Below are positions 1 through 63,493 of a stretch of 64,000 nucleotides of DNA, in pieces. Both the position numbers and the translations under genes were made by a program. The notes below the pieces were generated by a model that worked only from the letters and a program-made list of their open reading frames with translations, did no database searches and was not told the origin of the DNA. How positions within the stretch are numbered: position 1 is the stretch's first letter; every line of letters begins with the position of its first letter. The stretch comes from Escherichia coli O127:H6 str. E2348/69 (GTDB lineage: Bacteria > Pseudomonadota > Gammaproteobacteria > Enterobacterales > Enterobacteriaceae), in NCBI RefSeq assembly GCF_000026545.1, contig NC_011601.1; one strand, written 5' to 3'.

Positions 1-2
1 AT

Positions 3-140
3 CAGTTCGGTGAGCGCGATCAGGTTGCGCCGGGCATTTTCACCGATTACCCGGTACGTGAGCTGCTGGGTATCAGCCAGGCAGATGAGCGCCTGATTTA
101 TAACACGGTGCTGGGCCGGATTGCGGAGGCTGTACGGTGA
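3..140 (+). CDS. tail completion protein (P2 gpS-like), C-terminal fragment; 5' end outside window
   Basis: Open frame running into window start, stop TGA overlapping GTG start of next gene (GTGA), position immediately upstream of gpV homolog. Confidence 0.45.
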   Translation, partial: QFGERDQVAPGIFTDYPVRELLGISQADERLIYNTVLGRIAEAVR

Positions 141-1065: not shown

Positions 1066-1068
1066 ATC

Positions 1069-2566: not shown

Positions 2567-4128
2567 CAGTGAAATACTACGCCATTCTGACTAATCAGGG
2601 CGCGGCACGACTGGCTAACGCGACGATGCTCGGCAGTAAGCTGAATCTGACGCAAATGGCCGTTGGTGATGCAAATGGTGTGTTACCAACACCAGACCCT
2701 GCACAAACAAAACTGATTAACCAGAAACGCATTGCACCGCTGAATCTTCTGAGTGTTGACCCTAACAATCAGAGCCAGATTATTGCGGAGCAAATCATCC
2801 CTGAAAACGAGGGAGGATTCTGGATCCGTGAGATTGGTCTTTATGATGATGAAGGTGTACTCATTGCGGTGGCAAACTGCCCGGAAACGTACAAACCGCA
2901 GTTGCAGGAAGGCAGTGGACGCACCCAGACTATCCGCATGATTCTGGTTGTCACGAACACCGAAGCCATCACGCTGAAAATCGACCCGTCTGTGGTTCTG
3001 GCAACCCGCAAATATGTGGATGATAAAATCTCAGAGCACGAACAGTCACGACGTCACCCGGACGCCTCGCTGACCGTAAAAGGTTTTACTCAGTTAAGCA
3101 GTGCAATTAACAGTGAATCAGAAACACTGGCCGCAACACCGAAAGCGGTTAAGGCTGCATATGACCTGGCTAACGGGAAATATACCGCCCAGAACGCCAC
3201 CACTACACAAAAAGGAATTGTTCAGCTCAGTAGCGCCACGAACAGCACGTCTGAAACGCTGGCAGCGACACCAAAAGCTGTTAAGGCGGTAATGGATGAA
3301 ACGAACAAGAAAGCACCATTAAACAGCCCGGCACTGACCGGAACGCCAACAACACCAACAGCGCCACAGGGGACTAATAGTACCCAGATCGCAAGCACGG
3401 CTTTCGTTATGGCCGCGATTGCCGCACTTGTAGATTCGTCACCTGATGCACTGAACACGCTGAACGAACTGGCTGCGGCGCTGGGCAATGACCCGAATTT
3501 TGCGACCACCATGACTAACGCGCTTGCGGGTAAGCAACCGAAGGATGCCACCCTGACGGCGCTGGCAGAGCTTGCTACATCAGCAGATAAACTCCCATAT
3601 TTTACAGGGGCAGATCGTGCCGCGTTAACCGCGTTGACAAGTGTTGGACGTGCCATTCTTGGTAAAACCAGCACTCAGGGAGTTCTTGATTACCTTGGTT
3701 TGGGGGAAGGCTCTGCACTGCCCGTTGGTGTGCCCGTTCCGTGGTCCTCAGCAACACCACCAACGGGCTGGCTGAAATGTAACGGTGCAGCATTTTCTTC
3801 TGAAATGTATCCCAGACTGGCAAGGGCTTATCCCACCAATAAATTACCGGATTTACGCGGTGAATTTATCCGTGGCTGGGATGATGGGCGCGGGATTGAT
3901 GCGGGACGTACCCTGCTTTCAGGGCAGGATGGTACAAGTTTTTCTCATTACGGAGGTAATTTCGACATTGGGTCTGGTCATTCAATCAATAACTATGACC
4001 AAATTGTTTCTAACCAACCAGGCTTTTCCCGTTTTTCATTTGCAGGGCCTTCACGAGGTGATGGGGTTAATTATGTAACCATTCGTCCTCGTAATATTAC
4101 GTTTAATTACATCGTAAGGGCAGCATGA
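2563..4128 (+). CDS. tail fiber protein, P2 gpH-like (constant N-terminal part fused to C-terminal cassette A)
   Basis: 521 aa ORF; internal duplicated SETLAATPKAVKA motif typical of tail fibers; C-terminal 140 aa begin with the GLGEGSALPVGVPVPW repeat shared with two other cassettes. Confidence 0.85.
   Translation: MTVKYYAILTNQGAARLANATMLGSKLNLTQMAVGDANGVLPTPDPAQTKLINQKRIAPLNLLSVDPNNQSQIIAEQIIPENEGGFWIREIGLYDDEGVLIAVANCPETYKPQLQEGSGRTQTIRMILVVTNTEAITLKIDPSVVLATRKYVDDKISEHEQSRRHPDASLTVKGFTQLSSAINSESETLAATPKAVKAAYDLANGKYTAQNATTTQKGIVQLSSATNSTSETLAATPKAVKAVMDETNKKAPLNSPALTGTPTTPTAPQGTNSTQIASTAFVMAAIAALVDSSPDALNTLNELAAALGNDPNFATTMTNALAGKQPKDATLTALAELATSADKLPYFTGADRAALTALTSVGRAILGKTSTQGVLDYLGLGEGSALPVGVPVPWSSATPPTGWLKCNGAAFSSEMYPRLARAYPTNKLPDLRGEFIRGWDDGRGIDAGRTLLSGQDGTSFSHYGGNFDIGSGHSINNYDQIVSNQPGFSRFSFAGPSRGDGVNYVTIRPRNITFNYIVRAA
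3685..3710 (+). promoter_or_regulatory. putative invertase crossover site A (hix/gix-like) at start of cassette A
   Basis: Sequence ...ccttggtttgggggaagg... marks start of ~225 bp repeat; weaker dyad than site B. Confidence 0.4.
3695..3920 (+). repeat. repeat copy A (~225 bp, direct) encoding conserved N-terminal 75 aa of tail-fiber C-terminal cassette
   Basis: Near-identical to 4134..4360 (direct) and reverse complement of 5475..5696. Confidence 0.85.
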
Positions 4129-4149
4129 AAACGTTGGTTTGGGGGAAGG
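4124..4149 (+). promoter_or_regulatory. putative invertase crossover site B (hix/gix-like)
   Basis: catGAAAACgtTGGTTTggggg resembles the AAACC..GGTTT dyad of Hin/Gin sites as recalled; sits exactly at repeat boundary. Confidence 0.45.
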
Positions 4150-4360
4150 CTCTGCACTGCCCGTTGGTGTGCCCGTTCCATGGCCCTCAGCCACGCCGCC
4201 AACGGGATGGCTGAAATGTAACGGCGCAGCATTTTCTTCTGAAAAGTACCCAAAACTGGCAAGGGCTTACCCCACCAATAAATTACCAGACTTACGCGGT
4301 GAATTTATCCGTGGCTGGGATGATGGGCGAGGAATTGATGCGGCACGCGCTTTATTGAGC
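4134..4360 (+). repeat. repeat copy B (direct relative to A)
   Basis: Sequence identity with copy A visible by eye over about 225 bp. Confidence 0.85.
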
Positions 4361-4615
4361 ATTCAAAACGGGATGTTGGAAAAACACCGCCATATTGTTG
4401 TAGCTAACGATGGATATGACACAAAGGATGAATGGGAGTTGGCCACGATTTTCAAAAAAACATATACGCAAGGCAGGGGGCTTGATGCCACAAATACAGG
4501 AGGGAGTTTGATTCCATCACCAACGCTTCATTCACGAGGAAGTATTGGTAACACAGGTGGTAGTGAAACCCGCCCCCGCAATATTGCATTTAACTATATC
4601 GTGAGGGCGGCTTAG
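4139..4615 (+). CDS. alternative tail-fiber C-terminal cassette B (promoterless, lacks fiber N-terminus)
   Basis: 158 aa ORF begins MGEGSALPVGVPVPW and ends PRNIAFNYIVRAA, same architecture as C-terminus of gpH. Confidence 0.6.
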   Translation: MGEGSALPVGVPVPWPSATPPTGWLKCNGAAFSSEKYPKLARAYPTNKLPDLRGEFIRGWDDGRGIDAARALLSIQNGMLEKHRHIVVANDGYDTKDEWELATIFKKTYTQGRGLDATNTGGSLIPSPTLHSRGSIGNTGGSETRPRNIAFNYIVRAA

Positions 4616-4621
4616 TTATAT

Positions 4622-5233
4622 TCAACTGGCTGCTGCCAGTGGTATTTCCGGCAAGTTGATATCTGGTGCCATGTTTATATCCATTGCGTTCAGCGCGTCT
4701 ATATAATCCAGCACGGCATTAAGCCGGGTGGTTTCTGCCTGCGTCAACTTCCGCCCGGCCTGCAACTTCAACTGAATCAGACTTATGGAAGCCATTGCCG
4801 CATCAGCCAGTGACTGGCGCTTGGTTTCTGCCGCTTCTACTGCAGCACGATGTTGTGCCTCAGTATCTGTCACCCATTTTTCACCATCCCATTTATCGTA
4901 TGGTGTTAACGGGGCGATAGTGGTTGTATTTTTCGGGTAGTCACCCAGCGCCGTGATTTCTTCGGTGTTTCCCGTGTCAGTGCTATAGACGGTTTCACCA
5001 CGATGGTCTGGCGCATACTCCCATGAGCTTAAATTCTCCGAACGGCGGATAGCATAGCCCGCTTTATGTGCGCCCGGGGCATCTAAACAGGAATTTGCCG
5101 GAATACCGACACCCACAGCAAGATATTCAGTTGATTCGGAAATATATTCCCGTGTCTCACCATCATAGTTATAAACGACGATGTTTCCTGCCTGTACGGC
5201 AATAAGGTCATCATTTAATATCGCGTTATTCAT
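4622..5233 (-). CDS. tail fiber assembly protein (Tfa/gpG-like chaperone)
   Basis: 203 aa ORF immediately downstream of cassette C on minus strand; size and position typical of Tfa. Confidence 0.65.
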   Translation of the reverse strand: MNNAILNDDLIAVQAGNIVVYNYDGETREYISESTEYLAVGVGIPANSCLDAPGAHKAGYAIRRSENLSSWEYAPDHRGETVYSTDTGNTEEITALGDYPKNTTTIAPLTPYDKWDGEKWVTDTEAQHRAAVEAAETKRQSLADAAMASISLIQLKLQAGRKLTQAETTRLNAVLDYIDALNAMDINMAPDINLPEIPLAAAS

Positions 5234-5700
5234 TATGCGGTTCTCACAATATAATTGAAGGCAATATTGCGTGGGTGGGTTTCATTCCCCTCTGAGGATT
5301 CCGTTCTGTATTGACTGGTAAATCTACCGTTAATTGCACCTTGCCGGACGGCGTTATCTGTCGACAACAGACTATCCCCTCCTTTGTCATTTGGCACCAA
5401 CACCGTGTTATCCCACGCATCCCATGACCGAATATTATGATAATGACTTCCTGTTAACCACCCCTGCATGCTTAAGATGCCCCTTCCGGCATCCACCCCG
5501 CGCCCATCATCCCAGCCACGGATAAATTCACCGCGTAAATCCGGTAATTTATTGGTGGGGTAGGCCTTTGCCAGTTTTGGGTACATTTCAGAAGAAAATG
5601 CTGCACCGTTACATTTCAGCCACCCTGCTGGCGGTGTGGCTGAGGGCCACGGAACAGGTACACCAACGGGCAGTGCAGAGCCTTCCCCCAAACCAACGTT
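5233..5700 (-). CDS. alternative tail-fiber C-terminal cassette C (inverted orientation)
   Basis: Minus-strand frame encodes GLGEGSALPVGVPVPW...PRNIAFNYIVRTA; the annotated Met upstream is probably not a real start. Confidence 0.6.
   Translation of the reverse strand, partial: NVGLGEGSALPVGVPVPWPSATPPAGWLKCNGAAFSSEMYPKLAKAYPTNKLPDLRGEFIRGWDDGRGVDAGRGILSMQGWLTGSHYHNIRSWDAWDNTVLVPNDKGGDSLLSTDNAVRQGAINGRFTSQYRTESSEGNETHPRNIAFNYIVRTA
5475..5696 (-). repeat. repeat copy C (inverted relative to A and B)
   Basis: Reverse complement of copies A/B. Confidence 0.85.
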
Positions 5701-5706
5701 TTCGTT
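5681..5706 (-). promoter_or_regulatory. putative invertase crossover site C (hix/gix-like), inverted, about 60 bp upstream of invertase gene
   Basis: Reverse complement reads cgAAAACgtTGGTTTgggggaagg; position next to invertase as gixR is to gin in Mu. Confidence 0.45.
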
Positions 5707-5762
5707 TTTATCCCTACCTATACCAACTCTGTATTTTTCACGAAACAAAGAGGATGTTTTTT

Positions 5763-6362
5763 ATGCAAATTGGCTATATTCGTGTGTCAACAAATGACCA
5801 GAACACGGATTTACAACGCAATGCACTGAACTGCGCAGGATGTGAACTGATTTTTGAAGATAAAATCAGCGGAACGAAATCAGCCAGACCGGGATTGAAA
5901 AAACTGCTCAGAACGCTATCAGAAGGAGATACGCTGGTTGTCTGGAAGCTGGACAGACTGGGCAGAAGTATGAAACACCTGATCACGCTTATTGAGGAAT
6001 TGCGGGAAAAAGGTGTTAATTTCCGTAGTCTGACGGACAGCATTGACACATCAACACCCATGGGGCGTTTCTTTTTTCACGTCATGGGGGCTTTAGCCGA
6101 AATGGAACGTGAATTAATTGTAGAGCGTACACTGGCCGGGCTGGCAGCAGCACGCGCACAAGGACGCATTGGCGGACGTCGCCCGAAGTTGACAAAAGAA
6201 CAACACGAGCAAATAGCGAGGCTGATTAAAAACGGTCATGACAGGAAACAACTGGCGATCATTTACGACATCGGCATATCGACGATTTATCGTTATCACC
6301 CTGTAGGCGATATACAGGCTGAAGAAACAACCAGGCAGACTCAGGAAAATAAAAACCGCTAA
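5763..6362 (+). CDS. serine DNA invertase, Gin/Pin/Cin/Hin family
   Basis: N-terminus MQIGYIRVSTNDQNTDLQRNAL and internal VVWKLDRLGRSMKHLI, SLTDSIDTSTPMGRFFFHVMGALAEMERELI match Gin/Hin as recalled; C-terminal HTH region. Confidence 0.9.
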   Translation: MQIGYIRVSTNDQNTDLQRNALNCAGCELIFEDKISGTKSARPGLKKLLRTLSEGDTLVVWKLDRLGRSMKHLITLIEELREKGVNFRSLTDSIDTSTPMGRFFFHVMGALAEMERELIVERTLAGLAAARAQGRIGGRRPKLTKEQHEQIARLIKNGHDRKQLAIIYDIGISTIYRYHPVGDIQAEETTRQTQENKNR

Positions 6363-6384
6363 TCTGACCATTAGCGGTTTTGCG
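6349..6384. terminator. bidirectional hairpin between convergent invertase and gpU genes
   Basis: Inverted repeat accgctaat/attagcggt flanked by A-run on one side and T-rich on other. Confidence 0.45.
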
Positions 6385-6388
6385 TTAA

Positions 6389-6883
6389 TCAAAACAGCCC
6401 TTTAACGGAGCTGGCCGCGCTGTTAAGGGATGATGTGACCTTATCTTTGAAGCCGGACAGCATATCACTGAACGATGAGGATTGCAGGCGCTCCCGCAAA
6501 TCCTCATCACAGCGTTCAAGAGTCAGTGAAAATTCTATCTTTTTCGCCTTACCGTAGCGATCAAACTCGGAACGGGTCGTATTCGTTTCAGTCAGTACAT
6601 ACATGCCGTAAATCTGCCCGACACCATCAATCAGAGGCCAGGGGCGTCCTGTATATGCCTGCGTGGTCAGCAACGAAAGCGACACTTCGCCACCTGTAAT
6701 TTCAGGATAAAGCACGCCGGAAAGCACGATGCGATCATCACCTGCGCCGATATACTGCCAGCTTGCTGAACGGTTAACGCGTTCATTTTTCACATGCCGC
6801 CAGCTTTTGTTTTGCTGTAACTGCTGATGCGGCAATGTGCGCAGCTCAAAAACAAACATGCCGTAGATCATCATCATGGCCAT
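6389..6883 (-). CDS. tail protein, P2 gpU-like
   Basis: 164 aa ORF directly downstream of tape measure gene; size and order match P2 U. Confidence 0.75.
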   Translation of the reverse strand: MAMMMIYGMFVFELRTLPHQQLQQNKSWRHVKNERVNRSASWQYIGAGDDRIVLSGVLYPEITGGEVSLSLLTTQAYTGRPWPLIDGVGQIYGMYVLTETNTTRSEFDRYGKAKKIEFSLTLERCDEDLRERLQSSSFSDMLSGFKDKVTSSLNSAASSVKGLF

Positions 6884-6889
6884 GACTCC

Positions 6890-9733
6890 TCAATCTTTAT
6901 CGTAAAAACTGCCACGTCCGGCACGGTCGCGTCGTTCCAATTCTGCCCTGACCATTTCACCGACCAGTTTCGCCAGTTTGCGGGGATTCTGCGTAACAAC
7001 GTTATGCAGATGAACATGAATTTCACCGCCAAATCCGGAGACAACAGGCTCCCGGTTACGGGAAGTTGCAGGAACTGATGCCACTGGCGATCGTATGGCC
7101 TCCGCCACCGGGCGGGAGCTGGCCGCAACAACAGGGACCAGCGCCGGAGGCAGAGGAGTCGGGACCACGGGTGTGATGTTGATTGCGGAAGCAGGCTTAC
7201 TGACCTGCGCAATCTTCCGCTCCTGCCACTCCCCACGAACAGCAAGTGCGCGGGGCAGATTCTTAAAGACAATATCGCCGGGGCCAATGCGTTTTTTCGT
7301 CTCATCAACCAGCTTACCTGTGTTATCAGCAATTTTGCTGAGTCTGCGTAGCGTACCGGTATTGCTGTCTGTGAGCGGTTTGTTGTCTTTGGGTTTATCA
7401 CCTCCGGTGCCATTGCCATTTTCCACAGGCTTCGGCGGATTGATTTTCGCCAGGTCCCCCTGAAGCAAGGCAACCTTGTCCTGAAGAATGGCCGCACGCT
7501 GTGCGTCTTCGATTTTCTTGCGCGCCCTTTCCGCTTCATCCGGAAGGACGCCAAGTTTTTCAAGTATCCACGCCAGCGTATCCAGTAGCATTTTTGCAGG
7601 CGTCAGAACAAGTTGTAACGCACCGCCAAGAACGTTACCGAATATCTCGCCAGCACTGGTACATTTATCCAGCGTTTCCTTGCTGGACTCCATCGGTGAC
7701 AGCAGCGATTTAAACCAGTTAAACACCTGGCTGATCCCGCTTCCGATTGCGTCAAAAACAGGACCAAACCGTTCAAAGGTTTCGCGCAACGGGGCCAGCC
7801 TTTCCATAATCCCGCTGAACACCCCGGCAAAAAATGCCCTGATGGGATCCCAGTATTTCCAGATAAGAACGGCAGCTCCGGCAAGTGCAGCCACGATAAG
7901 ACCAACCGGACTGAACAGCGCCCCGATAGCGCCTCCCAGTAAAGAAACGGAACCCGTCACCATTCCCCATAGTGCTGGCAGGACCCTGACAGCATTCATT
8001 GATCCGGTCAGGAGAGAAAAACCAAGACGCAGTTTTGCCAGCGGACCAGCAAGCACACCAATAGCCAGCGACAACGAGCCAACCGTTGCAGTCATTGCCA
8101 GCAACGCACCGCCTGCTATCAGTAGCTGGCGCGTCAGTGCCGGATGGGCCTGCGCCAGCGCCGTCACCCTTGATACCACCCGCGTGAGCCACTGCGTGAC
8201 AGAACGCAGCGGACCGTCAATCAGATCTGCAATGCGGATGCGCAACCCTTCCCATGCACTGCCGAGTGATTTCAGATCGCCGTCAAGGTTGTTGGCCATA
8301 ACCTTTGCTGTGCGTTCAGCCTCACCGCGCGCGCCTTCAAGTTCTTTTCTCAGTTTGGGTAAGGAACCGTCACCCGCTGCATCAACGAGCGCCATAAACG
8401 ATGTGAAAGCCTCTTCTCCGGCAATGTCCTTAAAGAACGATACCCGGTCAACTTCCCCGTATTTGCGGGTGGCTTTATAAAGGTCGGCCAGCACATCCTC
8501 CATCGGGCGCATTTTGCCCCCGGCATCCGAGACGGACACGCCCAGCTCTTTCAGAGCTTCTGCCGCCGCCTTTGGCGGTGATGCCAGACGAGCCAGGCTG
8601 GCACGCATTGCCGTCCCGGCATCACTCCCTCTGATGCCCATATTCGCCAGCACGCCAGCCATCGCTGCGGCCTGCTCCAGCGATATTCCCAGCTTACCCG
8701 CCACCGGACCTGCATATTTCATGGTTTCGCCCAGTGCGCGAAGGTCAGTGTTGGTACGGGTAAACGCTGCGGTGAGTGTGTCACCGACCCGGTCCATCTG
8801 GTCAGCAGAAAGGCCGAACTGCGTCAGGATATTTGAGCCAATATCTGCCGTCTCGCCGAGATCCATACCGCCAGCCGTTGCCATGCTCAGCACTCCGGGA
8901 AGCGCAGCCTGAATGGCCTGCGGTGTGAAGCCAGCCATTGCAAGAAATGCCTGCCCACTGGCGGCATCGCCTGCGGTGAACTGCGTTTCAGAGCCAAGTT
9001 TTAACGCCTGCTCACGCAGCGCCTTAAACTGCGGGCTGTTCTGGTCGATTCGCGTCAGCGCCTGAACGCGGGACATCTCTTTGCCGAACCCGATCGCGGG
9101 CTGCAAAAAACGCCCGGCAGCATAGCCGCCCGCCGCTGCCGCACCAATTGCCAGCGCACCACCTGTTTTCAGTTTTCCCGCGGTTTCCTGCGCGCGCGAA
9201 TACCGCTCACGCGCCCGCGTTACACGCGCAAGCGCCTGCCGTTCGCGTTCAAGCTGGTTGTTGTACTGTTCGGTGCGTCTGATGGCCTGCTGGATGGTGT
9301 TATCGCTGCCTGTCAGGGAAATGCCGTGGCGTTTCAGCTCTCCGCCAAGTTCCCGCATTTTCTGAATTTCCCGTGTGCGCGATTCATTCAGGCGTTCAAG
9401 CCGGGTGCTTAACTGCTGCATCAGCTTTTGTTGTTTTTCGCTGAGCACTGTACCCGTGCGTTGTAACTGATTAAGAGCGTTAAGCTGGCGTCGTGCTTTC
9501 AATATGCCAGCATCCGCTTTACTGACAGCGTCACGGGCGCGCTCAAATGAACGCGCCTGACGCTCGAGATTTTTGATCGCCCCCTGCGTTCGCTGGATGG
9601 AGTCACCAAACTGCCCCATCAGGCGGCGGGCGTTTTCGGCAGGCCGGGTCAGCCTGTCAACGGCGCTGAAAGCGACCCGGATATCAAGAGTCTTCATTGT
9701 CTGTATTCCCGCTGCGAAGTGCCGCCCGCTCAC
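6890..9733 (-). CDS. tail tape measure protein, P2 gpT-like (start uncertain: GTG 9733 or ATG 9697)
   Basis: 947 aa ORF, Ala/Gly-rich with hydrophobic segments, follows E/E' as in P2. Confidence 0.8.
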   Translation of the reverse strand: MSGRHFAAGIQTMKTLDIRVAFSAVDRLTRPAENARRLMGQFGDSIQRTQGAIKNLERQARSFERARDAVSKADAGILKARRQLNALNQLQRTGTVLSEKQQKLMQQLSTRLERLNESRTREIQKMRELGGELKRHGISLTGSDNTIQQAIRRTEQYNNQLERERQALARVTRARERYSRAQETAGKLKTGGALAIGAAAAGGYAAGRFLQPAIGFGKEMSRVQALTRIDQNSPQFKALREQALKLGSETQFTAGDAASGQAFLAMAGFTPQAIQAALPGVLSMATAGGMDLGETADIGSNILTQFGLSADQMDRVGDTLTAAFTRTNTDLRALGETMKYAGPVAGKLGISLEQAAAMAGVLANMGIRGSDAGTAMRASLARLASPPKAAAEALKELGVSVSDAGGKMRPMEDVLADLYKATRKYGEVDRVSFFKDIAGEEAFTSFMALVDAAGDGSLPKLRKELEGARGEAERTAKVMANNLDGDLKSLGSAWEGLRIRIADLIDGPLRSVTQWLTRVVSRVTALAQAHPALTRQLLIAGGALLAMTATVGSLSLAIGVLAGPLAKLRLGFSLLTGSMNAVRVLPALWGMVTGSVSLLGGAIGALFSPVGLIVAALAGAAVLIWKYWDPIRAFFAGVFSGIMERLAPLRETFERFGPVFDAIGSGISQVFNWFKSLLSPMESSKETLDKCTSAGEIFGNVLGGALQLVLTPAKMLLDTLAWILEKLGVLPDEAERARKKIEDAQRAAILQDKVALLQGDLAKINPPKPVENGNGTGGDKPKDNKPLTDSNTGTLRRLSKIADNTGKLVDETKKRIGPGDIVFKNLPRALAVRGEWQERKIAQVSKPASAINITPVVPTPLPPALVPVVAASSRPVAEAIRSPVASVPATSRNREPVVSGFGGEIHVHLHNVVTQNPRKLAKLVGEMVRAELERRDRAGRGSFYDKD

Positions 9734-9947
9734 GCCAGCTAACCACTTCGCCGGGAGTCATCATGAAGATTTCGGCGGGCGACCAGTTAAAAATGGTGGC
9801 AATATCCGCCACCAGATCTTCGATGTGCTCAAAGCACACCAGGGTGATTACGCTGCCGTCTCCTGCACGCTCTTCGCGCCAGAGTCTGGCTCGCTCATAA
9901 AATTTACAGCCACAGCGCACAACTGAATAAAATCGCGTGACGACATT
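9684..9947 (-). CDS. gpE' extension, expressed as E+E' fusion by programmed -1 frameshift
   Basis: Overlapping frame downstream of an A-run (ttaaaaaaatg) inside E; C-terminus ...NTDNEDS typical of E+E'. Confidence 0.5.
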   Translation of the reverse strand, partial: NVVTRFYSVVRCGCKFYERARLWREERAGDGSVITLVCFEHIEDLVADIATIFNWSPAEIFMMTPGEVVSWRERAALRSGNTDNEDS

Positions 9948-10222
9948 TTTTTAATCATCACTTCATCCAGTTGTGGCGAGGTCACGCGAGGCAACAGCGT
10001 GAACATGGTATCCGCTTTCAGATTCAGCACATCAGACAGCGACAGACCACGCAGGGATCCCGCCTGCTCAATAGCCCCGGTGATCTCCACATATGTGATT
10101 TTTTCGGCACCACGCTCAATTGGCCGGGAAAGTTTTACACCACGTTCGACAGCCATATCCTCACCTGCCGTCACATCATCCGCTACGGTGTTATTCCGGG
10201 TTTCAGTATCGATATTTTTCAT
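9848..10222 (-). CDS. tail assembly chaperone, P2 gpE-like
   Basis: ORF between FII and T; N-terminus MKNIDTETRNN; paired with overlapping E' frame. Confidence 0.7.
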   Translation of the reverse strand: MKNIDTETRNNTVADDVTAGEDMAVERGVKLSRPIERGAEKITYVEITGAIEQAGSLRGLSLSDVLNLKADTMFTLLPRVTSPQLDEVMIKKMSSRDFIQLCAVAVNFMSEPDSGAKSVQETAA

Positions 10223-10277
10223 CAGTTGTCTCCTTTTCAGTCAGAGGCGACGCACTGCGCCGCCTGCATATTACTTA

Positions 10278-10790
10278 TCAGCCAAGCCCGAGCGCGGAAC
10301 GGATGCGATCGGGCACAATGTCCTTGCCGTCCTTCCGGTAAATGAAGTTCAGCAGGTCAATCTCCCACAACGGACGATCGTTAACACTCAGCTTGTAGTA
10401 GGTGTTTTTAATGGCGTAAGTGTGTGATGTGGCTTCGCCCTGTTTGGCTTCCCCCATATCAATTTCCGTCACACGTCCGCGCATTTCGACTTCATACAGG
10501 TCGCTTTCTGCATCGGTGTAATATTCACCCGCAAAACGCAGCAGCGTGCCGTCAATCGTGCCGCCATACTTAAGGAACAGCTCACGAACTGCGCCCCCCA
10601 TGACAAAGCTCGCATCAAGCGCGGAGTCGTCCAGACCGAGATCAATACTTACCGCCCCCATCATGCCACCACCCCGGTAGCTGTCGGTTTTGCGCGTCAG
10701 CTTAGGCAGGGTGACGGACGTCACCTTACCCACTTCGTTTTCACCATCCACAAACAGCGTAAAAAAGCGAAGATGTTTTGGCACAGCCAT
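10278..10790 (-). CDS. tail tube protein, P2 gpFII-like
   Basis: 170 aa ORF directly downstream of sheath gene. Confidence 0.8.
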   Translation of the reverse strand: MAVPKHLRFFTLFVDGENEVGKVTSVTLPKLTRKTDSYRGGGMMGAVSIDLGLDDSALDASFVMGGAVRELFLKYGGTIDGTLLRFAGEYYTDAESDLYEVEMRGRVTEIDMGEAKQGEATSHTYAIKNTYYKLSVNDRPLWEIDLLNFIYRKDGKDIVPDRIRSALGLG

Positions 10791-11974
10791 CAGGCACCTC
10801 CCAGCACCGCAAATGCGGGTTCAAAGTATTCATCAGTAAACGTCTGGTAAAGCTCCATGTCTTCCAGTGGCGGAACGGGCGTATATTTGTAGCGAATACG
10901 CACACGCCCCTGACGTAAATCCGTGGTGCTGTTATCCACCACGTCATACCAGCACTCCGCGCCAATCAGTTTCCCGGCAGTCACCAGTGAATCCAGTTTT
11001 GCCCTGATGGCACTGATAACATCCTTCACGTTCGCAGGCGTCAGTGGACTGTCGATGGTTTCAAACTGCGCTTCCGCAATTGAATCAGCCAGCACCTGTG
11101 CGGTTCGGGTATACACCTCAAAGATGTAGGCGTTCGTTTCCGGTGTGCGGTTGCCCCAGAAGCGGAACCCGTTGCGACGAATAATGGTCGTGATTTCTTT
11201 GTTGTTGAGGCTGTTGGCATCGCTGTCTTCGGCCTGCAACGACCAGAACACATGCCTCGACATCCCCAGCACATTTTTAACCGGAACGTTGGACAGTGAT
11301 TTGTGCCAGCCCTGCTCATGGTCAATGTACGCACGAAGGCCGCACGCATAGGCAGGCGCGGGGAACGTTTCGTTTTTGCCACTTTTCGGGTTGTAGGCGA
11401 TGAAGTCCGGCCATAAGAGCATCACCTCACGTTCGTTGAATTTCTGGCGGTAGGTAATCGCATCAGCCATCGTGTCACAGCCATGACATGAGGCATACAC
11501 AAACGCGCGCAGTTTACCCGCAATCACGCACAGGGATTTTGTCACCGCCTCCGTGTCCAGCTCCGGCGCGGCCAGAATACGCGGACGGTATCCGATGCTT
11601 TCATCCTGCTCTGCAACAAGCAGCGCATACATCCCCGTATAGCTGCCGTCAGATTCAGAACCACCGATAACCAGTTGATCCTGCGTCTTTCCGTCTTCTT
11701 CTTTGTGTTCAGCCACGCGAACGACGATCACCTTTGTGCTCACCTGGTCTGCGATAGCCTTAAGCGCACGATAAAGCGTCCCCGTTGTCCCGCATTTTCC
11801 CAGCACGTCATTGACGCGGGTCAGCAGTGTGGGCTTGTTCAGCGGGAACAGCTTCGCGTCCGCATCATCCGCCGTTGCCACGATACCGATAACACTGGAA
11901 TCAACATCATTAATCGCTGTTACCAGGTCGGTATTTTCCGTAACACGGGCACCATGAAAACGAGTTTCACTCAT
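10790..11974 (-). CDS. contractile tail sheath protein, P2 gpFI-like
   Basis: About 394 aa from internal Met MSETRFHG of 452 aa ORF; position before FII. Confidence 0.8.
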   Translation of the reverse strand: MSETRFHGARVTENTDLVTAINDVDSSVIGIVATADDADAKLFPLNKPTLLTRVNDVLGKCGTTGTLYRALKAIADQVSTKVIVVRVAEHKEEDGKTQDQLVIGGSESDGSYTGMYALLVAEQDESIGYRPRILAAPELDTEAVTKSLCVIAGKLRAFVYASCHGCDTMADAITYRQKFNEREVMLLWPDFIAYNPKSGKNETFPAPAYACGLRAYIDHEQGWHKSLSNVPVKNVLGMSRHVFWSLQAEDSDANSLNNKEITTIIRRNGFRFWGNRTPETNAYIFEVYTRTAQVLADSIAEAQFETIDSPLTPANVKDVISAIRAKLDSLVTAGKLIGAECWYDVVDNSTTDLRQGRVRIRYKYTPVPPLEDMELYQTFTDEYFEPAFAVLGGA

Positions 11975-12131
11975 AGCTTCAGCCCCTTGTATCCGTAAAA
12001 TGATTCGGCAACAATCATCACCCACCACGCGCGTAATCTCACCCCTGCGCCGTTCTCCCGACCCGGCGACAACAAAAAGCAGTAACCCCCTCCGCACGCA
12101 CATGCGACCATGCCGCACAGGGAGGGAACAG

Positions 12132-13232
12132 ATGACCGATACCACCATGCAATTGCTCAGTCAGGGCACAGACCCCGTGAAAATGCCGGATTTTGATATT
12201 CTCGCGGAGGGTAAAACGCTGTCAGGCGTGGCAGAGCGCCTGATGAGCCTGTCACTGACCGACAACCGGGGATTTGAGGCGGACCAGCTCACCATCACGC
12301 TGGATGATGCGGATGGTCAGTTGCAGCTACCGCCACGGGGCGCGCGCCTGACGGTTCTCATTGGCTGGAAAGGAGAACCGCTGACAGAAAAAGGCACTTA
12401 CATTGTTGATGAAATCGCTCACGAAGGACCGCCGGACAGGCTGACTGTTTCAGCCAGAAGCGCAGATTTTCGGGATGAATTTAACGTTAAACGTGAGGTG
12501 TCCTGGCATGATGTGACCGTTGAGCGCGTGGTATCTGCCATCGCTCATCGGTACGGTCTGAAACCGCAAATCAGCGAAATACTGATGGATATCGAAATCG
12601 ACCACGCCGACCAGACCGAAGAAAGCGACATGTCCTTCCTTACGCGCATGGCGGAAATGCTGGGCGCAATCACCACGGTAAAAAGCGGTAATCTGTTATT
12701 CATCATGCCAGGCGGTCGCGTGAACGCACTGGGCCAGCCGTTGCCATCGTTCGCCATCACACGCAGCAGCGGCGATCGCCATCAGTTCCGCATTGCTGAC
12801 CGCGAGGCGTATACGGGTGTACGCGCCTACTGGCTTGATCTTAATTACGGGAAAAAGAAAAAAGTCAGCGTGAAACGCCGCAAACCGAAAAAAGAGAAAA
12901 GCAGCAGCCGTGAAGGTGACTATATGGAAGGTGCGGAAGGCAACGTGTTTGTGTTACGCAAAACTTATCAGAACGAGCAGGCAGCAAGACGCGCAGCGGC
13001 GGCAAAATGGCAGCAGCTACAACGCGGAGCCGCATCATTTTCCATCACGCTGGCACGTGGACGAGCAGAACTCTACCCCGAAATGCATGGCACGGTAACA
13101 GGATTTAAAAGCGAGATTGATAATCAGGACTGGATCATTGCAAAAGCCGAGCACACCATTGATAACAGTGGCTTTACCACGCAGCTTGAGCTTGAAGCCA
13201 AAATCCCGGAATGGATAGCAGAAACAGAGTAA
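12132..13232 (+). CDS. tail protein, P2 gpD-like
   Basis: About 366 aa from MTDTTMQLL; lysine-rich linker; precedes ogr as in P2. Confidence 0.75.
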   Translation: MTDTTMQLLSQGTDPVKMPDFDILAEGKTLSGVAERLMSLSLTDNRGFEADQLTITLDDADGQLQLPPRGARLTVLIGWKGEPLTEKGTYIVDEIAHEGPPDRLTVSARSADFRDEFNVKREVSWHDVTVERVVSAIAHRYGLKPQISEILMDIEIDHADQTEESDMSFLTRMAEMLGAITTVKSGNLLFIMPGGRVNALGQPLPSFAITRSSGDRHQFRIADREAYTGVRAYWLDLNYGKKKKVSVKRRKPKKEKSSSREGDYMEGAEGNVFVLRKTYQNEQAARRAAAAKWQQLQRGAASFSITLARGRAELYPEMHGTVTGFKSEIDNQDWIIAKAEHTIDNSGFTTQLELEAKIPEWIAETE

Positions 13233-13426
13233 ACAACTTAGATGCATTAGCCCTGACATTTGCTAACGCGCTTACAGCAAGAATCATAACCAATCTGACA
13301 GCCTACCCGGTGTCAAAATCAGAAGAGCCTTACATTAGAATATGTTAATTTGTAGCAAACAAATTTACACACAAATGATTACTGCTGAAATAGCCCCCAT
13401 AAATGCCATGTCAAAGGATCCATGTT

Positions 13427-14092
13427 ATGAATATGCAAATTTTTATCGCACCAGCAGCCACAGTTGCTGCAGTCTGCCTTGCTGCATATTTTGCTTTACG
13501 AAATGAACGTAAAAAGAAAGCACTTGAGATTAGAACAACTCAACTAGATCGAATATCTGAGCTAGTAAACCGAGCATCTACCAATTTGATGCAATATACA
13601 GGTACTCTTGCCTCTATACTGGAAGCGCACGCCAAAGATAATTATCTACCGAACAAAAAATTTGACATTAATGTAATTAGCAAATGGAAAGATTGCCTCG
13701 ATGAGAGTGAGGTCTGGGCGATTGATATACAGCAACTAAGAACATGTCAGCACAGTCTGGAGTTTCATCGTGAAAAAGAATGGGCTGAATGGAAAAAAAT
13801 AATTCCACCATTACTTGATAAAATTAACCAATTTTTTCTCATATCTAAGCCAGGGCAACCTGTTACGTTTATAAATGGCCAAAACAAAACAGCTGATGAA
13901 CTACTTGTTTTCTCAAGATATTTGAGAAAACAAACAGCAGAAATTGAATCAGTACGTCAGCTGTTACTTTCTCAAATGAGAGAGGAATTCATCGAGTTAA
14001 CTAGCTTTGAACCTGTCACAATGTTTAGCTTATTTAAATCAATAAAGAAAAATGTCATGCAATTTTTCTGTATCAGTGCTCTTAAAAATTGA
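13427..14092 (+). CDS. hypothetical membrane-anchored protein (N-terminal TM helix), AT-rich insert between D and ogr
   Basis: 229 aa ORF (13403..14092; likely start 13427 or 13433); hydrophobic N-terminus IFIAPAATVAAVCLAAYFAL then charged helical region; markedly lower GC than flanking phage genes. Confidence 0.55.
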   Translation: MNMQIFIAPAATVAAVCLAAYFALRNERKKKALEIRTTQLDRISELVNRASTNLMQYTGTLASILEAHAKDNYLPNKKFDINVISKWKDCLDESEVWAIDIQQLRTCQHSLEFHREKEWAEWKKIIPPLLDKINQFFLISKPGQPVTFINGQNKTADELLVFSRYLRKQTAEIESVRQLLLSQMREEFIELTSFEPVTMFSLFKSIKKNVMQFFCISALKN

Positions 14093-14241
14093 CGCTCTGT
14101 TGCAAGCAACCCCAGTGTTAAACTGGGGTTATTCTTGCTAAGAGACCTTTCTACGGCATCAGTAAACAAAACGAACTATCAGTTGGAGTCTGAGCAAGTT
14201 CAGCCTAAACTAGCGACAGCACTACGTTAAGGGAGGTCGCT

Positions 14242-14502
14242 ATGTTCCGTTGTCCGCTTTGTGGCGCATCTGCCCGTATCCGCACCAGTCGTCCGGAAAA
14301 TGATTCAAACACCGTGCGGCAAAAGTATTACCAGTGTAACAACCTGGAATGCGGCGTATGCTTCTCAACACTGGAAGCTTTCCATAAATTCACATCGAAA
14401 CACGCCTCCGGCATCCACTCTTCAGAAGGTATCCCGTGGCATGAGCTGCCAGCTTCACACAGGGGAAACAATCAGATGAGCTTGCCTTTACCTCAGAATT
14501 AA
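14242..14502 (+). CDS. ogr: late gene transcriptional activator, Ogr/Delta zinc-finger family
   Basis: N-terminus MFRCPLCGASARIRTSR...YYQCNNLECG with Cys-x2-Cys...Cys-x4-Cys pattern as in P2 Ogr; 86 aa, longer than the ~72 aa recalled for P2. Confidence 0.8.
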   Translation: MFRCPLCGASARIRTSRPENDSNTVRQKYYQCNNLECGVCFSTLEAFHKFTSKHASGIHSSEGIPWHELPASHRGNNQMSLPLPQN

Positions 14503-14562
14503 CAGGCAGAATTGCCGGAGTAACAAAAACGCGATAGATTACGCGCGGGTGCCTTTCGGCTG

Positions 14563-14775
14563 ATGGTCGGAGGGAATACCCGAAGGCCAGATGTGGAAAG
14601 GCCCCGGAAAACATCTCTGTTTAACCGAGGCCCTAACCGCATTACCTTGACAAGTGAAAGGTTAGCGCCTCTCCGGAAAAGGAGCAAGTGCTATGTCGCA
14701 AAAATCGCTTACGGCCATCACGTTCTGCGTGACGGCAATCCTCATCATCTGGATGTTGCACGGTTCGCTGTGTGA
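14563..14775 (+). CDS. mok-like overlapping reading frame of hok-family locus
   Basis: 70 aa ORF in different frame overlapping the hok-like ORF, as mok overlaps hok in plasmid R1. Confidence 0.4.
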   Translation: MVGGNTRRPDVERPRKTSLFNRGPNRITLTSERLAPLRKRSKCYVAKIAYGHHVLRDGNPHHLDVARFAV

Positions 14776-14833
14776 AATACGGATGAGCTTCTGGGGAGCG
14801 GAGTTTGCGGCGTTCTTACAGTGTAAGCAGTAA
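14693..14833 (+). CDS. Hok/Gef-family type I toxin (small membrane peptide)
   Basis: 46 aa: MSQKSLTAITFCVTAILIIWMLHGSLCEIRMSFWGAEFAAFLQCKQ; TM segment followed by SLCEIR and E(V/F)AAF motifs of Hok; good SD (aaaaggag) upstream. Confidence 0.75.
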   Translation: MSQKSLTAITFCVTAILIIWMLHGSLCEIRMSFWGAEFAAFLQCKQ

Positions 14834-14917
14834 GGAAACCGCGACGGGGGAGCAATCCCCCGTCAATCGGTTGCCAGGGTAAGGTCGATAAGGCACCCTA
14901 TCTCACAGACATGAACA

Positions 14918-14952
14918 ACAAACCCGCAGCATAAAAACTGCGGGTTTTCTTT
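14918..14952 (+). terminator. rho-independent terminator downstream of hok-like gene
   Basis: aaacccgcagcataaaaactgcgggttttcttttt hairpin plus T-tract. Confidence 0.6.
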
Positions 14953-15099
14953 TTGGTGTCCTCACCGACTTGAAACAGTGATCAGACTATAAGACAAAGC
15001 CCACAATGTAGCGGGCTTACTCCCCTCCCCCCACTAAATGTGGACGCATCGTGGAACGAAGAGATATAAAACATTATAAATCAATTAGTTATTGAAAGA

Positions 15100-15136: not shown

Positions 15137-15436
15137 TTACTCGTCTTTGGGCGAAGCGTTTTCGACCCGGCTTTTTAACTTCTGCCCGGGTCTGAAGGTC
15201 ACCACGCGCCGTGCTGTAATGGGAATATCCTCGCCCGTTTTCGGGTTACGTCCCGGGCGTTGATTCTTATCACGCAGATCGAAGTTACCAAAACCAGAGA
15301 GTTTCACCTGTTCGCCGTTTTCCAGAGCGCGACGGATCTCTTCGAAAAACAGTTCAACCAGTTCTTTGGCATCCCGCTTGCTAAGCCCAAGCTTATCAAA
15401 CAGATATTCTGACATTTCAGCTTTTGTAAGCGCCAT
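15137..15436 (-). CDS. ihfA: integration host factor alpha subunit
   Basis: 99 aa [33 protein letters not shown]... matches IHF-alpha. Confidence 0.95.
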
Positions 15437-31817: not shown

Positions 31818-34079
31818 ATGTCGCAACATAACGAAAAGAACCCACATCAGCACCAGTCACCACTACACGATTCCAGCGAAGCGAAACCGGGGATGGACTC
31901 ACTGGCACCTGAAGACGGATCTCATCGTCCAGCGGCTGAACCAACACCGCCTGGTGCACAACCTACCGCCCCAGGGAGCCTGAAAGCCCCTGATACGCGT
32001 AACGAAAAACTTAATTCTCTGGAAGACGTACGCAAAGGCAGTGAAAATTATGCGCTGACCACTAATCAGGGCGTGCGCATCGCCGACGATCAAAACTCAC
32101 TGCGTGCCGGTAGCCGTGGTCCAACTCTGCTGGAAGATTTTATTCTGCGCGAGAAAATCACTCACTTTGACCATGAGCGCATCCCGGAACGTATTGTTCA
32201 TGCACGCGGATCAGCAGCTCACGGTTATTTCCAGCCATATAAAAGCTTAAGCGATATCACCAAAGCGGATTTCCTCTCAGATACGAACAAAATCACCCCA
32301 GTATTTGTTAGGTTCTCTACCGTTCAGGGCGGCGCTGGCTCTGCCGATACCGTACGTGATATCCGTGGCTTTGCCACCAAGTTCTATACTGAAGAGGGTA
32401 TTTTTGACCTCGTTGGCAATAACACGCCAATCTTCTTTATCCAGGATGCGCATAAATTCCCCGATTTTGTTCATGCGGTAAAACCAGAACCGCACTGGGC
32501 AATTCCACAAGGGCAAAGCGCCCACGATACTTTCTGGGATTATGTTTCTCTGCAACCTGAAACTCTGCACAACGTGATGTGGGCAATGTCGGATCGCGGT
32601 ATCCCGCGCAGTTACCGCACTATGGAAGGCTTCGGTATTCATACCTTCCGCCTGATTAATGCCGAAGGGAAGGCAACGTTCGTACGTTTCCACTGGAAAC
32701 CACTGGCAGGTAAAGCCTCACTCGTTTGGGATGAAGCACAAAAACTAACCGGACGTGACCCGGACTTCCACCGCCGCGAGTTGTGGGAAGCGATTGAAGC
32801 AGGCGATTTTCCTGAATACGAACTGGGCTTCCAGTTGATTCCTGAAGAAGACGAATTCAAGTTCGACTTCGATCTTCTCGATCCAACCAAACTTATCCCG
32901 GAAGAATTGGTGCCTGTTCAGCGTGTCGGCAAAATGGTGCTCAATCGTAATCCGGATAACTTCTTTGCTGAAAACGAACAGGTGGCTTTCCATCCAGGGC
33001 ATATTGTCCCCGGTCTGGATTTCACCAACGACCCGTTATTGCAGGGGCGTTTGTTCTCTTATACCGATACACAAATCAGTCGTCTTGGTGGGCCGAATTT
33101 CCATGAAATTCCGATTAACCGCCCGACCTGCCCTTACCATAATTTCCAGCGTGACGGCATGCATCGTATGGGGATCGACACTAACCCGGCGAATTACGAA
33201 CCGAACTCGATCAACGATAACTGGCCGCGCGAAACACCGCCGGGGCCGAAACGCGGCGGTTTTGAATCATACCAGGAACGCGTGGAAGGAAATAAAGTTC
33301 GCGAGCGCAGTCCATCGTTTGGCGAATATTATTCCCATCCGCGTCTGTTCTGGCTAAGTCAGACGCCATTCGAGCAGCGCCATATTGTCGATGGTTTCAG
33401 TTTTGAGTTAAGCAAAGTAGTTCGTCCGTATATTCGTGAGCGCGTTGTTGACCAGCTGGCGCATATTGATCTCACTCTGGCCCAGGCGGTGGCGAAAAAT
33501 CTCGGTATCGAACTGACTGATGACCAGCTGAATATCACCCCACCTCCGGACGTCAACGGTCTGAAAAAGGATCCATCCTTAAGTCTGTACTCCATTCCTG
33601 ACGGTGATGTGAAAGGTCGCGTGGTAGCAATTTTGCTTAATGATGAAGTGAGATCGGCAGACCTTCTGGCCATTCTCAAGGCGCTGAAGGCCAAAGGCGT
33701 TCATGCCAAACTGCTCTACTCCCGAATGGGGGAAGTGACTGCGGATGACGGTACGGTGTTGCCTATAGCTGCTACCTTTGCCGGTGCGCCTTCGCTGACG
33801 GTCGATGCAGTCATTGTCCCTTGCGGCAATATTGCGGATATCGCTGACAACGGCGATGCCAACTACTATCTGATGGAAGCCTACAAACACCTTAAACCGA
33901 TTGCGCTGGCAGGAGACGCGCGCAAGTTTAAAGCAACAATCAAGGTCGCTGACCAGGGTGAAGAAGGGATTGCGGAAGCTGACAGCGCCGATGGTAGTTT
34001 TATGGATGAACTGTTAACGCTGATGACAGCACACCGCGTGTGGTCACGCATTCCTAAGATTGACAAAATCCCGGCGTAA
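31818..34079 (+). CDS. katE: catalase HPII
   Basis: 753 aa [38 protein letters not shown]...; catalase core then C-terminal flavodoxin-like domain. Confidence 0.95.
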
Positions 34080-34124
34080 ATATGGATAAGGTCACGCCCC
34101 TGGGGAGTGACCTTACCACCTTAC

Positions 34125-41033: not shown

Positions 41034-41230
41034 TAATTTGCACATATTGGTTTGTACGAAAAAGAGTACTTTGTTCACGCCGGATGCGGCGTGAACGCCT
41101 TACTCGACCTACAAAACTATGCAAATTCAATACATTGCAGGAGTCGAATAGGCCTGACAGGCGTAGCACGTCAAACGGTGTAACCTTTGTCATCGACCCG
41201 CCTCTTTTTTAATCGCTCTCCGCCTGTTAC

Positions 41231-60117: not shown

Positions 60118-61461
60118 ATGGATCAGACATATTCTCTGGAGTCATTCCTCAACCATGTCCAAAAGCGCGACCCGAATCAAACCGAGTTCGCGCAAGCCGT
60201 TCGTGAAGTAATGACCACACTCTGGCCTTTTCTTGAACAAAATCCAAAATATCGCCAGATGTCATTACTGGAGCGTCTGGTTGAACCGGAGCGCGTGATC
60301 CAGTTTCGCGTGGTATGGGTTGATGATCGCAACCAGGTGCAGGTCAACCGTGCATGGCGTGTGCAGTTCAGCTCTGCCATCGGCCCGTACAAAGGCGGTA
60401 TGCGCTTCCATCCGTCAGTTAACCTCTCCATTCTCAAATTCCTCGGCTTCGAACAAACCTTCAAAAATGCCCTGACTACTCTACCGATGGGCGGTGGTAA
60501 AGGCGGCAGCGATTTCGACCCGAAAGGAAAAAGCGAAGGCGAAGTTATGCGTTTCTGCCAGGCGCTGATGACTGAACTGTATCGCCACCTGGGCGCGGAT
60601 ACTGACGTTCCGGCAGGTGATATCGGCGTTGGTGGTCGTGAAGTCGGCTTTATGGCGGGGATGATGAAAAAGCTCTCCAACAATACCGCCTGCGTCTTCA
60701 CCGGTAAGGGCCTTTCATTTGGCGGCAGTCTTATTCGCCCGGAAGCTACCGGCTACGGTCTGGTTTATTTCACAGAAGCAATGCTAAAACGCCACGGTAT
60801 GGGTTTTGAAGGAATGCGCGTTTCCGTTTCTGGCTCCGGCAACGTCGCCCAGTACGCTATCGAAAAAGCGATGGAATTTGGTGCTCGAGTGATCACTGCG
60901 TCAGACTCCAGCGGCACTGTAGTTGATGAAAGCGGATTCACGAAAGAGAAACTGGCGCGCCTTATCGAAATCAAAGCCAGCCGCGATGGTCGAGTGGCAG
61001 ATTACGCCAAAGAATTTGGTCTGGTCTATCTCGAAGGCCAACAACCGTGGTCTGTACCGGTTGATATCGCCCTGCCTTGCGCCACCCAGAACGAACTGGA
61101 TGTTGACGCCGCGCATCAGCTTATCGCCAATGGCGTTAAAGCCGTCGCCGAAGGGGCAAATATGCCGACCACCATCGAAGCGACTGAACTGTTCCAGCAG
61201 GCAGGCGTACTGTTTGCACCGGGTAAAGCGGCTAATGCTGGCGGTGTAGCAACATCGGGCCTGGAAATGGCGCAAAACGCTGCGCGCCTGGGCTGGAAAG
61301 CCGAGAAAGTTGACGCACGTTTGCATCACATCATGCTGGATATCCACCATGCCTGTGTTGAGCATGGTGGTGAAGGTGAGCAAACCAACTACGTGCAGGG
61401 CGCGAACATTGCCGGTTTTGTGAAGGTTGCGGATGCGATGTTAAGCCAGGGCGTGATTTAA
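60118..61461 (+). CDS. gdhA: NADP-specific glutamate dehydrogenase
   Basis: 447 aa MDQTYSLESFLNHVQKRDPNQTEFAQAVREV. Confidence 0.95.
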   Translation: MDQTYSLESFLNHVQKRDPNQTEFAQAVREVMTTLWPFLEQNPKYRQMSLLERLVEPERVIQFRVVWVDDRNQVQVNRAWRVQFSSAIGPYKGGMRFHPSVNLSILKFLGFEQTFKNALTTLPMGGGKGGSDFDPKGKSEGEVMRFCQALMTELYRHLGADTDVPAGDIGVGGREVGFMAGMMKKLSNNTACVFTGKGLSFGGSLIRPEATGYGLVYFTEAMLKRHGMGFEGMRVSVSGSGNVAQYAIEKAMEFGARVITASDSSGTVVDESGFTKEKLARLIEIKASRDGRVADYAKEFGLVYLEGQQPWSVPVDIALPCATQNELDVDAAHQLIANGVKAVAEGANMPTTIEATELFQQAGVLFAPGKAANAGGVATSGLEMAQNAARLGWKAEKVDARLHHIMLDIHHACVEHGGEGEQTNYVQGANIAGFVKVADAMLSQGVI

Positions 61462-61467
61462 GACAAT

Positions 61468-61502
61468 TGTGCCGGATACAGCGCAAACGCCTTATCCGGC
61501 CA
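61468..61502. repeat. REP-like palindromic element between gdhA and topB
   Basis: gccggatacagcgcaaacgccttatccggcc dyad typical of E. coli REP. Confidence 0.6.
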
Positions 61503-61537
61503 TAAAAATCTTCAGTATCAGATGGTTGAAAGAACCT

Positions 61538-63493
61538 TTATGTTATCACTCCATTGCCCGCCTCTTCTGATGGCGGGCTTTTTTTCGGCGCTCTCTTGCG
61601 TGGCGAATCCTTTATCTTCCCCTCTCCACCGCCGGGAGCCATTATTCCCCGAAACTGCCTTACCGACGTGCGCTTTGCCTGATCAATCAACTGGTACAAT
61701 GTCCCCACCAGCGGCTGCATAAAGTCCTGATAGCGACACTGCTTTTCGCTGATTTGCGTCAGCACCGATTCCCAGTGCGCGGTCATGTCCGGTCGCGTCG
61801 CCATTTCTGGCAGCGAATGGAATAGCGCTTTTCCGGCGTCGGTGGAGTGGATATAGCGCCCTTTTTTGGTCAGGAAACCCCGCTTGAACAACAGTTCAAT
61901 AATCCCGGCACGCGTTGCTTCTGTCCCCAGACCATCGGTCGCACGAAGGATCTTTTTCAGATCTTTGTCCTGCACAAAGCGCGCGATCCCGGTCATCGCC
62001 GAAAGCAGTGTTGCATCGGTAAAATGGCGCGGCGGTTGGGTTTGCCGCTCTACCACTTCGCCTTTTTCGCACAACAATTCATCGCCTTTCGCCACCACAG
62101 GCAGCGGCGTGCCGTCGTTTTCTTCATCGCGCTCTTTGCTGCCTAACAGCGTGCGCCAGCCTGCTTCAACAAGAAAACGGGCTTTAGCGACAAATTTGCC
62201 TTTGGCAATGTCCAGTTCGATAACACACTTGCGGAACACCGCATCCGGGCAGAACTGCATCAAGTACTGACGGGCAATCAGGTTATAGACCTTCGCTTCG
62301 TTCTCCGTCAGGTTGATCGCAGAACTCCGTGCGGTCGGAATGATGGCGTGGTGCGCATCGACCTTTTTGTCATCCCAACAGCGGTTGCGTATATCTGGAT
62401 CTACCACTGGCTGCGGCAACAGATCCGGTGCATGAACGCTGATAGCATTCATCACCGCGTGGCGTCCGGCAAAATGTTCTTCTGGCAAATAGCGGCAATC
62501 GGAACGCGGATAAGTGATTAGCTTGTGCGTTTCGTACAGCTTCTGGCAGATATCAAGCACGTTCTGCGCGCTCAGACCAAAACGTTTAGCCGCTTCAATC
62601 TGCAACGCCGAAAGAGAAAACGGTAGCGGCGCGGATTCTGATTCCCGTTTATCGTTATAGCTGGTGACAATAGCTGGTTGACCACTAATGCGGTTAACCA
62701 CATGCTCCGCCAGTGGACGATGTAACAAGCGCCCTTCTTCATCCTGGTACGGTTCACACGCTTCGCTCGGTTGCCAGATAGCGGTGAACCGCTCATCGGC
62801 AGGTGTCACGATATGTGCTTTGACTTCAAAGAAATCTTTCGCCACGAAGTTTTCAATCTCTTCGTCGCGGCGCACCACCAGTCCGAGTACGGGCGTCTGC
62901 ACGCGTCCCACGGAAAGTACGCCCTGATAACCGGCATTGCGACCGAGAATGGTGTAAGCGCGGGTCATATTGATGCCGTACAGCCAGTCAGCTCGGGCTC
63001 GCGCCAGTGCAGAAACGCACAGCGGTACAAACTCGCTATTGGAGCGAAGACGATCGATCGCCCGCTCAACCGCCTGCGGGTTCAGGTCGTTTATCAAACA
63101 ACGCTGTACCTGCTGGCGCTTTTCCGGTGCCAGTTGCAGGTAGTCCAGCACTTCATCCACCAGCAGTTGCCCTTCGCGATCCGGGTCTCCGGCGTGAACG
63201 ATTTCGCTGGCTTCATGCAGGAAGCGTTTGATGACATTAAGTTGTTTAGTCACGGAGGGTCGGGGCTGTAATTGCCACTTTTCCGGGACAATTGGCAAAT
63301 CCGCAAGATTCCAGCGCGCATAGCGGCTGTCGTAGGCGTCTGGCTGCGCCTGCTCAAGCAGGTGACCGATACACCAGGTCACCACCTGACCATTACCGCA
63401 CTCGATAAAGCCATCGCCTTTCCGGTGCGGTTTAGGCAGGACATCAGCAATGGCGCGCGCCAGACTCGGTTTTTCGGCAATAAACAACCGCAT
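61538..63493 (-). CDS. topB: DNA topoisomerase III
   Basis: About 651 aa from [19 protein letters not shown] (Toprim N-terminus). Confidence 0.9.

Follow-up and report, generated by a model that had tools for sequence, protein, structure and literature searches.

An ynjI-less gdhA-topB junction in Escherichia coli E2348/69 and its alleles across Enterobacteriaceae

We analyzed a 64-kb stretch of Escherichia coli DNA (hereafter, the window) and in particular the junction between two genes near its end. The gene gdhA, which encodes an NADP-specific glutamate dehydrogenase of 447 aa, occupies 60118..61461 on the plus strand, with a TAA stop codon at 61459-61461, and scores 777 bits against NCBIfam NF006929 (cut-off 536). 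On the minus strand, topB encodes a DNA topoisomerase III of 651 aa at 61538..63493 (the 3’ limit, 61538, counts the stop codon in) and scores 1019.9 bits against NCBIfam TIGR01056 (cut-off 515.75). The two genes converge tail-to-tail on a spacer of 76 bp (61462..61537, unstranded), delimited by the ORF limits and by blastn, in which there is no ynjI. The RefSeq annotation places gdhA and topB within the same limits in the identical stretch of the enteropathogenic strain E. coli E2348/69 (EPEC O127:H6, NZ_CP059840.2), whose sequence is the same as that of the window over the 5.6 kb compared (5601/5601 bases around the junction, including 100% identity over 60900-62100).

An earlier interpretation of this DNA, made from its letters only (the sequence-only reading), had described a gdhA-topB gap of 76 bp with a REP-like palindrome as its sole content, and had called ynjI absent. 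The ORF list and the RefSeq limits agree with the size of the gap, while pattern matching and folding recover the palindrome and nothing else. We found no YnjI similarity in the window by tblastn: queries with YnjI and YdjO against the whole 64 kb returned only noise (best E = 2.6), and no ORF with a DUF1266 domain was found between gdhA and topB. Such a junction is an ordinary and common strain polymorphism, already known from sequenced and annotated genomes.

The palindrome is a single Y-type REP at 61471..61501 (plus strand), supported by pattern match, fold and alignment with orthologues. It reads GCCGGATACAGCGCAAACGCCTTATCCGGCC and matches the REP consensus pattern GCCGGATNNNGCGNNAACGCCTTATCCGGCC with 0 mismatches (0.00 matches expected in shuffles); it has the GCCGGATG...CATCCGGC arms of the ~35-bp imperfect palindrome by which REPs are recognized, and lies in extragenic position, between the stop codons of gdhA and topB. 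Its stem folds at -18.7 kcal/mol (z = -4.8), and its match to the REP-derived Rfam family naRNA4 (32.8 bits, E = 9.5e-4) falls below the gathering score of 59.5. The conserved GTAG/CTAC tetranucleotide is missing beside the palindrome, where CATA replaces CTAC (3’ end ...TATCCGGCCATAAA in the window versus ...TATCCGGCCTACGAAA in orthologues), and the window copy, probably an old one, is slightly decayed at this motif. It otherwise resembles enterobacterial REP/BIME elements in being an imperfect palindrome of ~31-35 bp with GCCGGAT...ATCCGGC arms, extragenic, and located in the 3’ UTR between convergent genes, but it is a single copy with no BIME pair. The window REP aligns with the REPs of E1V33, SCPM-O-B-8794, E200086 and E. 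albertii and, on this alignment, is orthologous to the same-site REP of other Escherichia in which gdhA and topB are adjacent. The window contains one other REP-like match (41079-41109), with 3 mismatches to the Y-type pattern.

According to the older literature, REPs stabilise gdhA mRNA. REPs downstream of gdhA are reportedly classical examples of the element, in work said to go back to Becerril and colleagues in 1985 and Merino and colleagues in 1987. Among the papers searched, none was relevant to what REPs do at gdhA. By analogy, the REP of the window would be expected to serve as a 3’-UTR stem that shields the mRNA from exonucleases. Downstream of topB on the minus strand, folding identifies only this REP stem, with no U-tract.

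The sequence-only reading had also stated that K-12 carries ynjI between gdhA and topB, and had proposed an alignment with MG1655. The MG1655 annotation confirms the statement: ynjI lies there as a minus-strand gene (b1762, 346 aa, DUF1266) whose product matches PF06889 (DUF1266) and NCBIfam NF008480. The flanking genes of this K-12 locus (b1761-b1763), their order and their convergence are as in the window, with 97.6% identity in gdhA and 96.2% in the core of topB. The distance between the two stop codons, however, is 1284 bp in MG1655, ynjI included, versus 76 bp in the window: in place of one REP, K-12 has a BIME, an ynjI insertion of ~1.17 kb and a 127-bp ynjI-topB spacer. By blastn, homology to K-12 ends 1 base past the gdhA stop and restarts 25 nt within topB, so that the non-homologous block measures 100 bp in the window (61463-61562) and 1308 bp in K-12.

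The difference described by the sequence-only reading is therefore real in the spacer, but its extent is larger and takes in the last ~100-200 nt of topB. Counted from the topB stop codon, identity to K-12 is 66% over the initial 100 nt and 82% over the following 100, versus 96-98% in the remainder of the gene. We thus delimited an allele-specific topB 3’ end, encoding a basic C-terminal tail, at 61538..61640 (minus strand; 66-82% identical to K-12). The K-12 TopB tail ends in ...KKSPPADEVGSGAIA and the tail of the window differs from it; a third tail type, ...KKAAKPKTDNTDSAN, is found in TopB of strain 536. Judging from these alignments, the window REP and the last ~30 topB codons together represent an allele class other than that of K-12. 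Since each allele comes with its own last ~30 topB codons, the differences point to replacement of the whole block, and not to a clean excision of ynjI. Such a replacement would presumably proceed via homologous recombination in the flanking genes.

We counted the alleles over 5426 complete E. coli genomes. A ynjI-type interval was present in 3457 of them, while gdhA and topB were adjacent in 1515, nearly all of which (1494) had the spacer of the window at an identity of at least 98.7%; about 348 further genomes had the cassette of Hsp70 and J-domain/Sel1 genes found in strain 536. Any match to ynjI was seen in 3506 genomes, with a median of one copy per ynjI-bearing genome. These counts are those expected of three alleles that, with few exceptions, exclude one another. 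Present in about 64% of the complete genomes, ynjI is an accessory gene and not a core one. The genomes with ynjI include K-12 derivatives, O157:H7 and O103:H2, and those with the spacer of the window include the type strain ATCC 11775, O25b:H4-ST131 strains and an APEC O2:K1:H4 strain. The latter three are strains of phylogroup B2, and it is from such named strains that we assign the allele to B2. By its junction, the window can be identified as B2-type E. coli resembling E2348/69.

This is in line with the suggestion of the sequence-only reading that the DNA comes from a non-K-12 lineage with several small indels: the window is identical to E2348/69 at the junction, it shares its spacer with ATCC 11775, ST131 and APEC O2:K1:H4, and it differs from MG1655 by four indels of >200 bp, plus a P2-like prophage. 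The differences that had been noted at arpB and ydjO are genuine, K-12 having 863 bp more in arpB and 1109 bp at ydjO versus 60 bp in the window. Another difference is found in the katE-chbG spacer, which spans 49 bp in the window (34070-34118) and 261 bp in MG1655.

The third allele, as found in strain 536 (L005, 15808-21847), consists of an Hsp70-family gene and two paralogous J-domain/Sel1-repeat genes, over 6 kb with 42% GC; most of the about 348 genomes with this allele have only one J-domain gene. The gdhA-topB insertion point, the AT-rich DNA and the allele-specific topB tail are points of likeness with the alleles described above, but this three-gene cassette is unrelated to ynjI and missing from the window. 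We considered the possibility that ynjI is a remnant of the 536 island and rejected it, as YnjI has no similarity to the proteins of the cassette. A PADLOC scan for defence systems returned nothing for YnjI and, for the 536 cassette, only weak, repeat-driven matches of the Sel1 proteins. A related Hsp70 gene lies downstream of topB in Klebsiella spallanzanii. We also observed in strain 536 a dispersed repeat of ~127 bp just past topB, which is probably ERIC-like.

To place these alleles in a wider context, we scanned GTDB species representatives for TopB, which returned 80 loci (E. fergusonii, E. marmotae and E. ruysiae are not among them), and in these we mapped GdhA, YnjI and the proteins of the 536 cassette. 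We found gdhA next to topB, at 0-315 bp, in E. albertii, in two further Escherichia lineages (E1V33 is among the adjacent cases), in Salmonella, Citrobacter, Enterobacter, Kluyvera and Kosakonia, and in many others. In a few genera, other insertions of 0.4-5.6 kb separate the two genes. Among the 80 loci, ynjI was present only in Escherichia sp. MOD1-EC7003. Since nearly all outgroups have adjacent gdhA and topB, the empty site is the likely ancestral state for the family and ynjI an insertion. Across the loci compared, the empty site thus appears as the ancestral layout of Enterobacteriaceae, and the site itself as a recurrent insertion point with at least three alleles. At this locus, K-12 does not represent the ancestral state.

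In Pseudocitrobacter (L022) and Citrobacter sp. NCU1 (L025), a BIME after gdhA and a topB tail, both of the K-12 type, follow each other with nothing in between; the K-12 state can thus be reconstructed as this haplotype plus about 1.17 kb. In the K-12 allele, an AT-rich ynjI segment of ~1.17 kb would have been inserted between the paired REPs of the BIME and the end of topB. The segment has 40.6% GC, versus 53-55% in the flanking genes, and in K-12 H-NS/StpA repress ynjI while BglJ-RcsB activates it (PMC3950696); low GC and H-NS repression are typical of acquired DNA. A target-site duplication flanking the insertion was looked for by eye; only a 7-bp ATTTCAG repeat was seen, which is unconvincing. 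The spacer and REP of the window, on the other hand, align with those of other empty-site Escherichia genomes, and the window thus does not equal K-12-type DNA minus ynjI. We consider it highly probable that the window carries the common phylogroup-B2 allele of a multi-allelic site, at which adjacent genes are the ancestral layout, K-12 and most non-B2 strains have an ynjI insertion, and alleles are exchanged as whole blocks.

The main alternative is that this strain descends from a K-12-like ancestor and that its lineage lost ynjI by a clean deletion, in which case the state of the window would be derived. MOD1-EC7003 lends it some support: ynjI is at the same site in this genome, and its divergence from K-12 (91.9% nucleotide identity) is similar to that of the topB core (92.6%), which suggests that the insertion is old, possibly predating E. 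coli, so that B2 could have lost it secondarily. After a clean deletion, however, the BIME of the K-12 type and the ADEVGSGAIA tail of topB should still be present, as seen in Pseudocitrobacter, whereas the window has a single Y-type REP and a tail of its own, which align with those of empty-site Escherichia; moreover, neither blastn nor tblastn detected any remnant of ynjI in the window, and the two genes are adjacent in nearly all outgroup genera. We therefore regard a clean deletion as unlikely. The term “absent”, used by the sequence-only reading for ynjI, is correct as a description, but would be misleading if taken as a deletion here, given that adjacency is ancestral and ynjI the inserted element. 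As an alternative to plain retention, B2 may have regained the empty allele by recombination.

Two other explanations are much less probable still. That ynjI was relocated elsewhere in the genome of this strain is conceivable in that our view covers 64 kb of it, but YnjI similarity is lacking in the window and, across E. coli, the genomes with any ynjI (3506), with adjacent genes (1515) and with the cassette (about 348) together do not exceed 5426, with the median of one copy given above; we consider relocation very improbable. An assembly or sequencing artefact, for instance a collapsed region, has nothing in its favour and is refuted for practical purposes, as the same junction is seen in 1494-1515 independently assembled complete genomes and in other species. 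We thus favour the reading of the window as a common B2 allele with the ancestral gene layout.

The block that distinguishes the alleles also contains a GC-rich hairpin, GCCCGCC-N9-GGCGGGC followed by T7, at 61556..61586 (plus strand), which on the basis of folding and conservation is a probable intrinsic terminator of gdhA. It lies 95-125 nt past the gdhA stop and within the last 16 codons of topB. The stem comprises 7 GC base pairs and 2 inner pairs, with a fold of -17.5 kcal/mol, and the U-tract directly follows it on the strand transcribed from gdhA, as in intrinsic terminators. A scan of 61300-61800 for consensus promoters and terminators found nothing; the hairpin loop exceeds the length limit of that scan. 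We found the topB-embedded hairpin in about 20 Enterobacteriaceae species with adjacent gdhA and topB, and 96.8% of cells are paired in an alignment of 21 taxa. Covariation analysis of these 21 taxa detected no compensatory pairs, all ten changes being one-sided and wobble-preserving; consequently, the conservation of the hairpin is not separable from that of the encoded peptide, KKSPP..EAG. In ynjI-bearing haplotypes the stem is weaker (-7.2 kcal/mol in K-12 and -7.9 in MOD1-EC7003).

In the empty allele, gdhA transcription would most likely end at this hairpin and its U-tract, within the sequence encoding the TopB tail. We tentatively propose, as a possibility that falls somewhat short of an even case, that the topB-embedded hairpin with T7 is a working gdhA terminator across Escherichia, Salmonella, Citrobacter and Kosakonia. 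In that case, the TopB tail peptide and the RNA structure would both constrain these ~30 nt, with the constraint relaxed and the stem decayed where ynjI separates the two genes (K-12 and MOD1-EC7003), and the terminator would have been overlooked because K-12, used for transcript mapping, has the insertion allele. K-12 transcript maps cannot reveal where gdhA transcription terminates in B2 strains or in Salmonella. This putative embedded terminator is only a mildly new angle on the locus.

Several observations concern the junction in other genomes of the survey. In E. albertii NBRC 107761 (L008, 4279-6440), the topB ORF stops early, at 624 aa, and the remaining tail-coding sequence, including the hairpin, is kept as non-coding DNA; its spacer is 260 bp long and contains three REPs. 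The topB and gdhA genes of SCPM-O-B-8794 (L006) are only 91.6-93.5% identical to both the window and K-12, and this genome, labelled E. coli, is probably not E. coli sensu stricto but a cryptic lineage of Escherichia. Finally, in the Pseudocitrobacter MAG (L022, 11900-12110), the terminal ~60 nt of topB, like the BIME after gdhA, are much closer to K-12 (L001, 6990-7060) than the distance between the genera predicts, with 32/34 nt matching in the hairpin region, which hints at an exchange of the junction between genera.

At its other end, the window begins with part of a P2-like prophage (1-15094), which has no counterpart in MG1655 1776000-1795210. This prophage end encodes the tail sheath and tube, tape measure, baseplate and Ogr/Delta proteins, contains a Hok/Gef gene at ~14693-14833, and adjoins ihfA (15137-15436). 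A tail-fibre segment of about 1.6-2 kb (~3692-5696) is inverted with respect to the E2348/69 assembly NZ_CP059840.2. It is bordered by inverted repeats of ~210 bp (3692-3908 and 5501-5703) and adjoins a recombinase gene (~5763-6362), and looks like a Gin/Cin-type invertible host-range switch in the other orientation.
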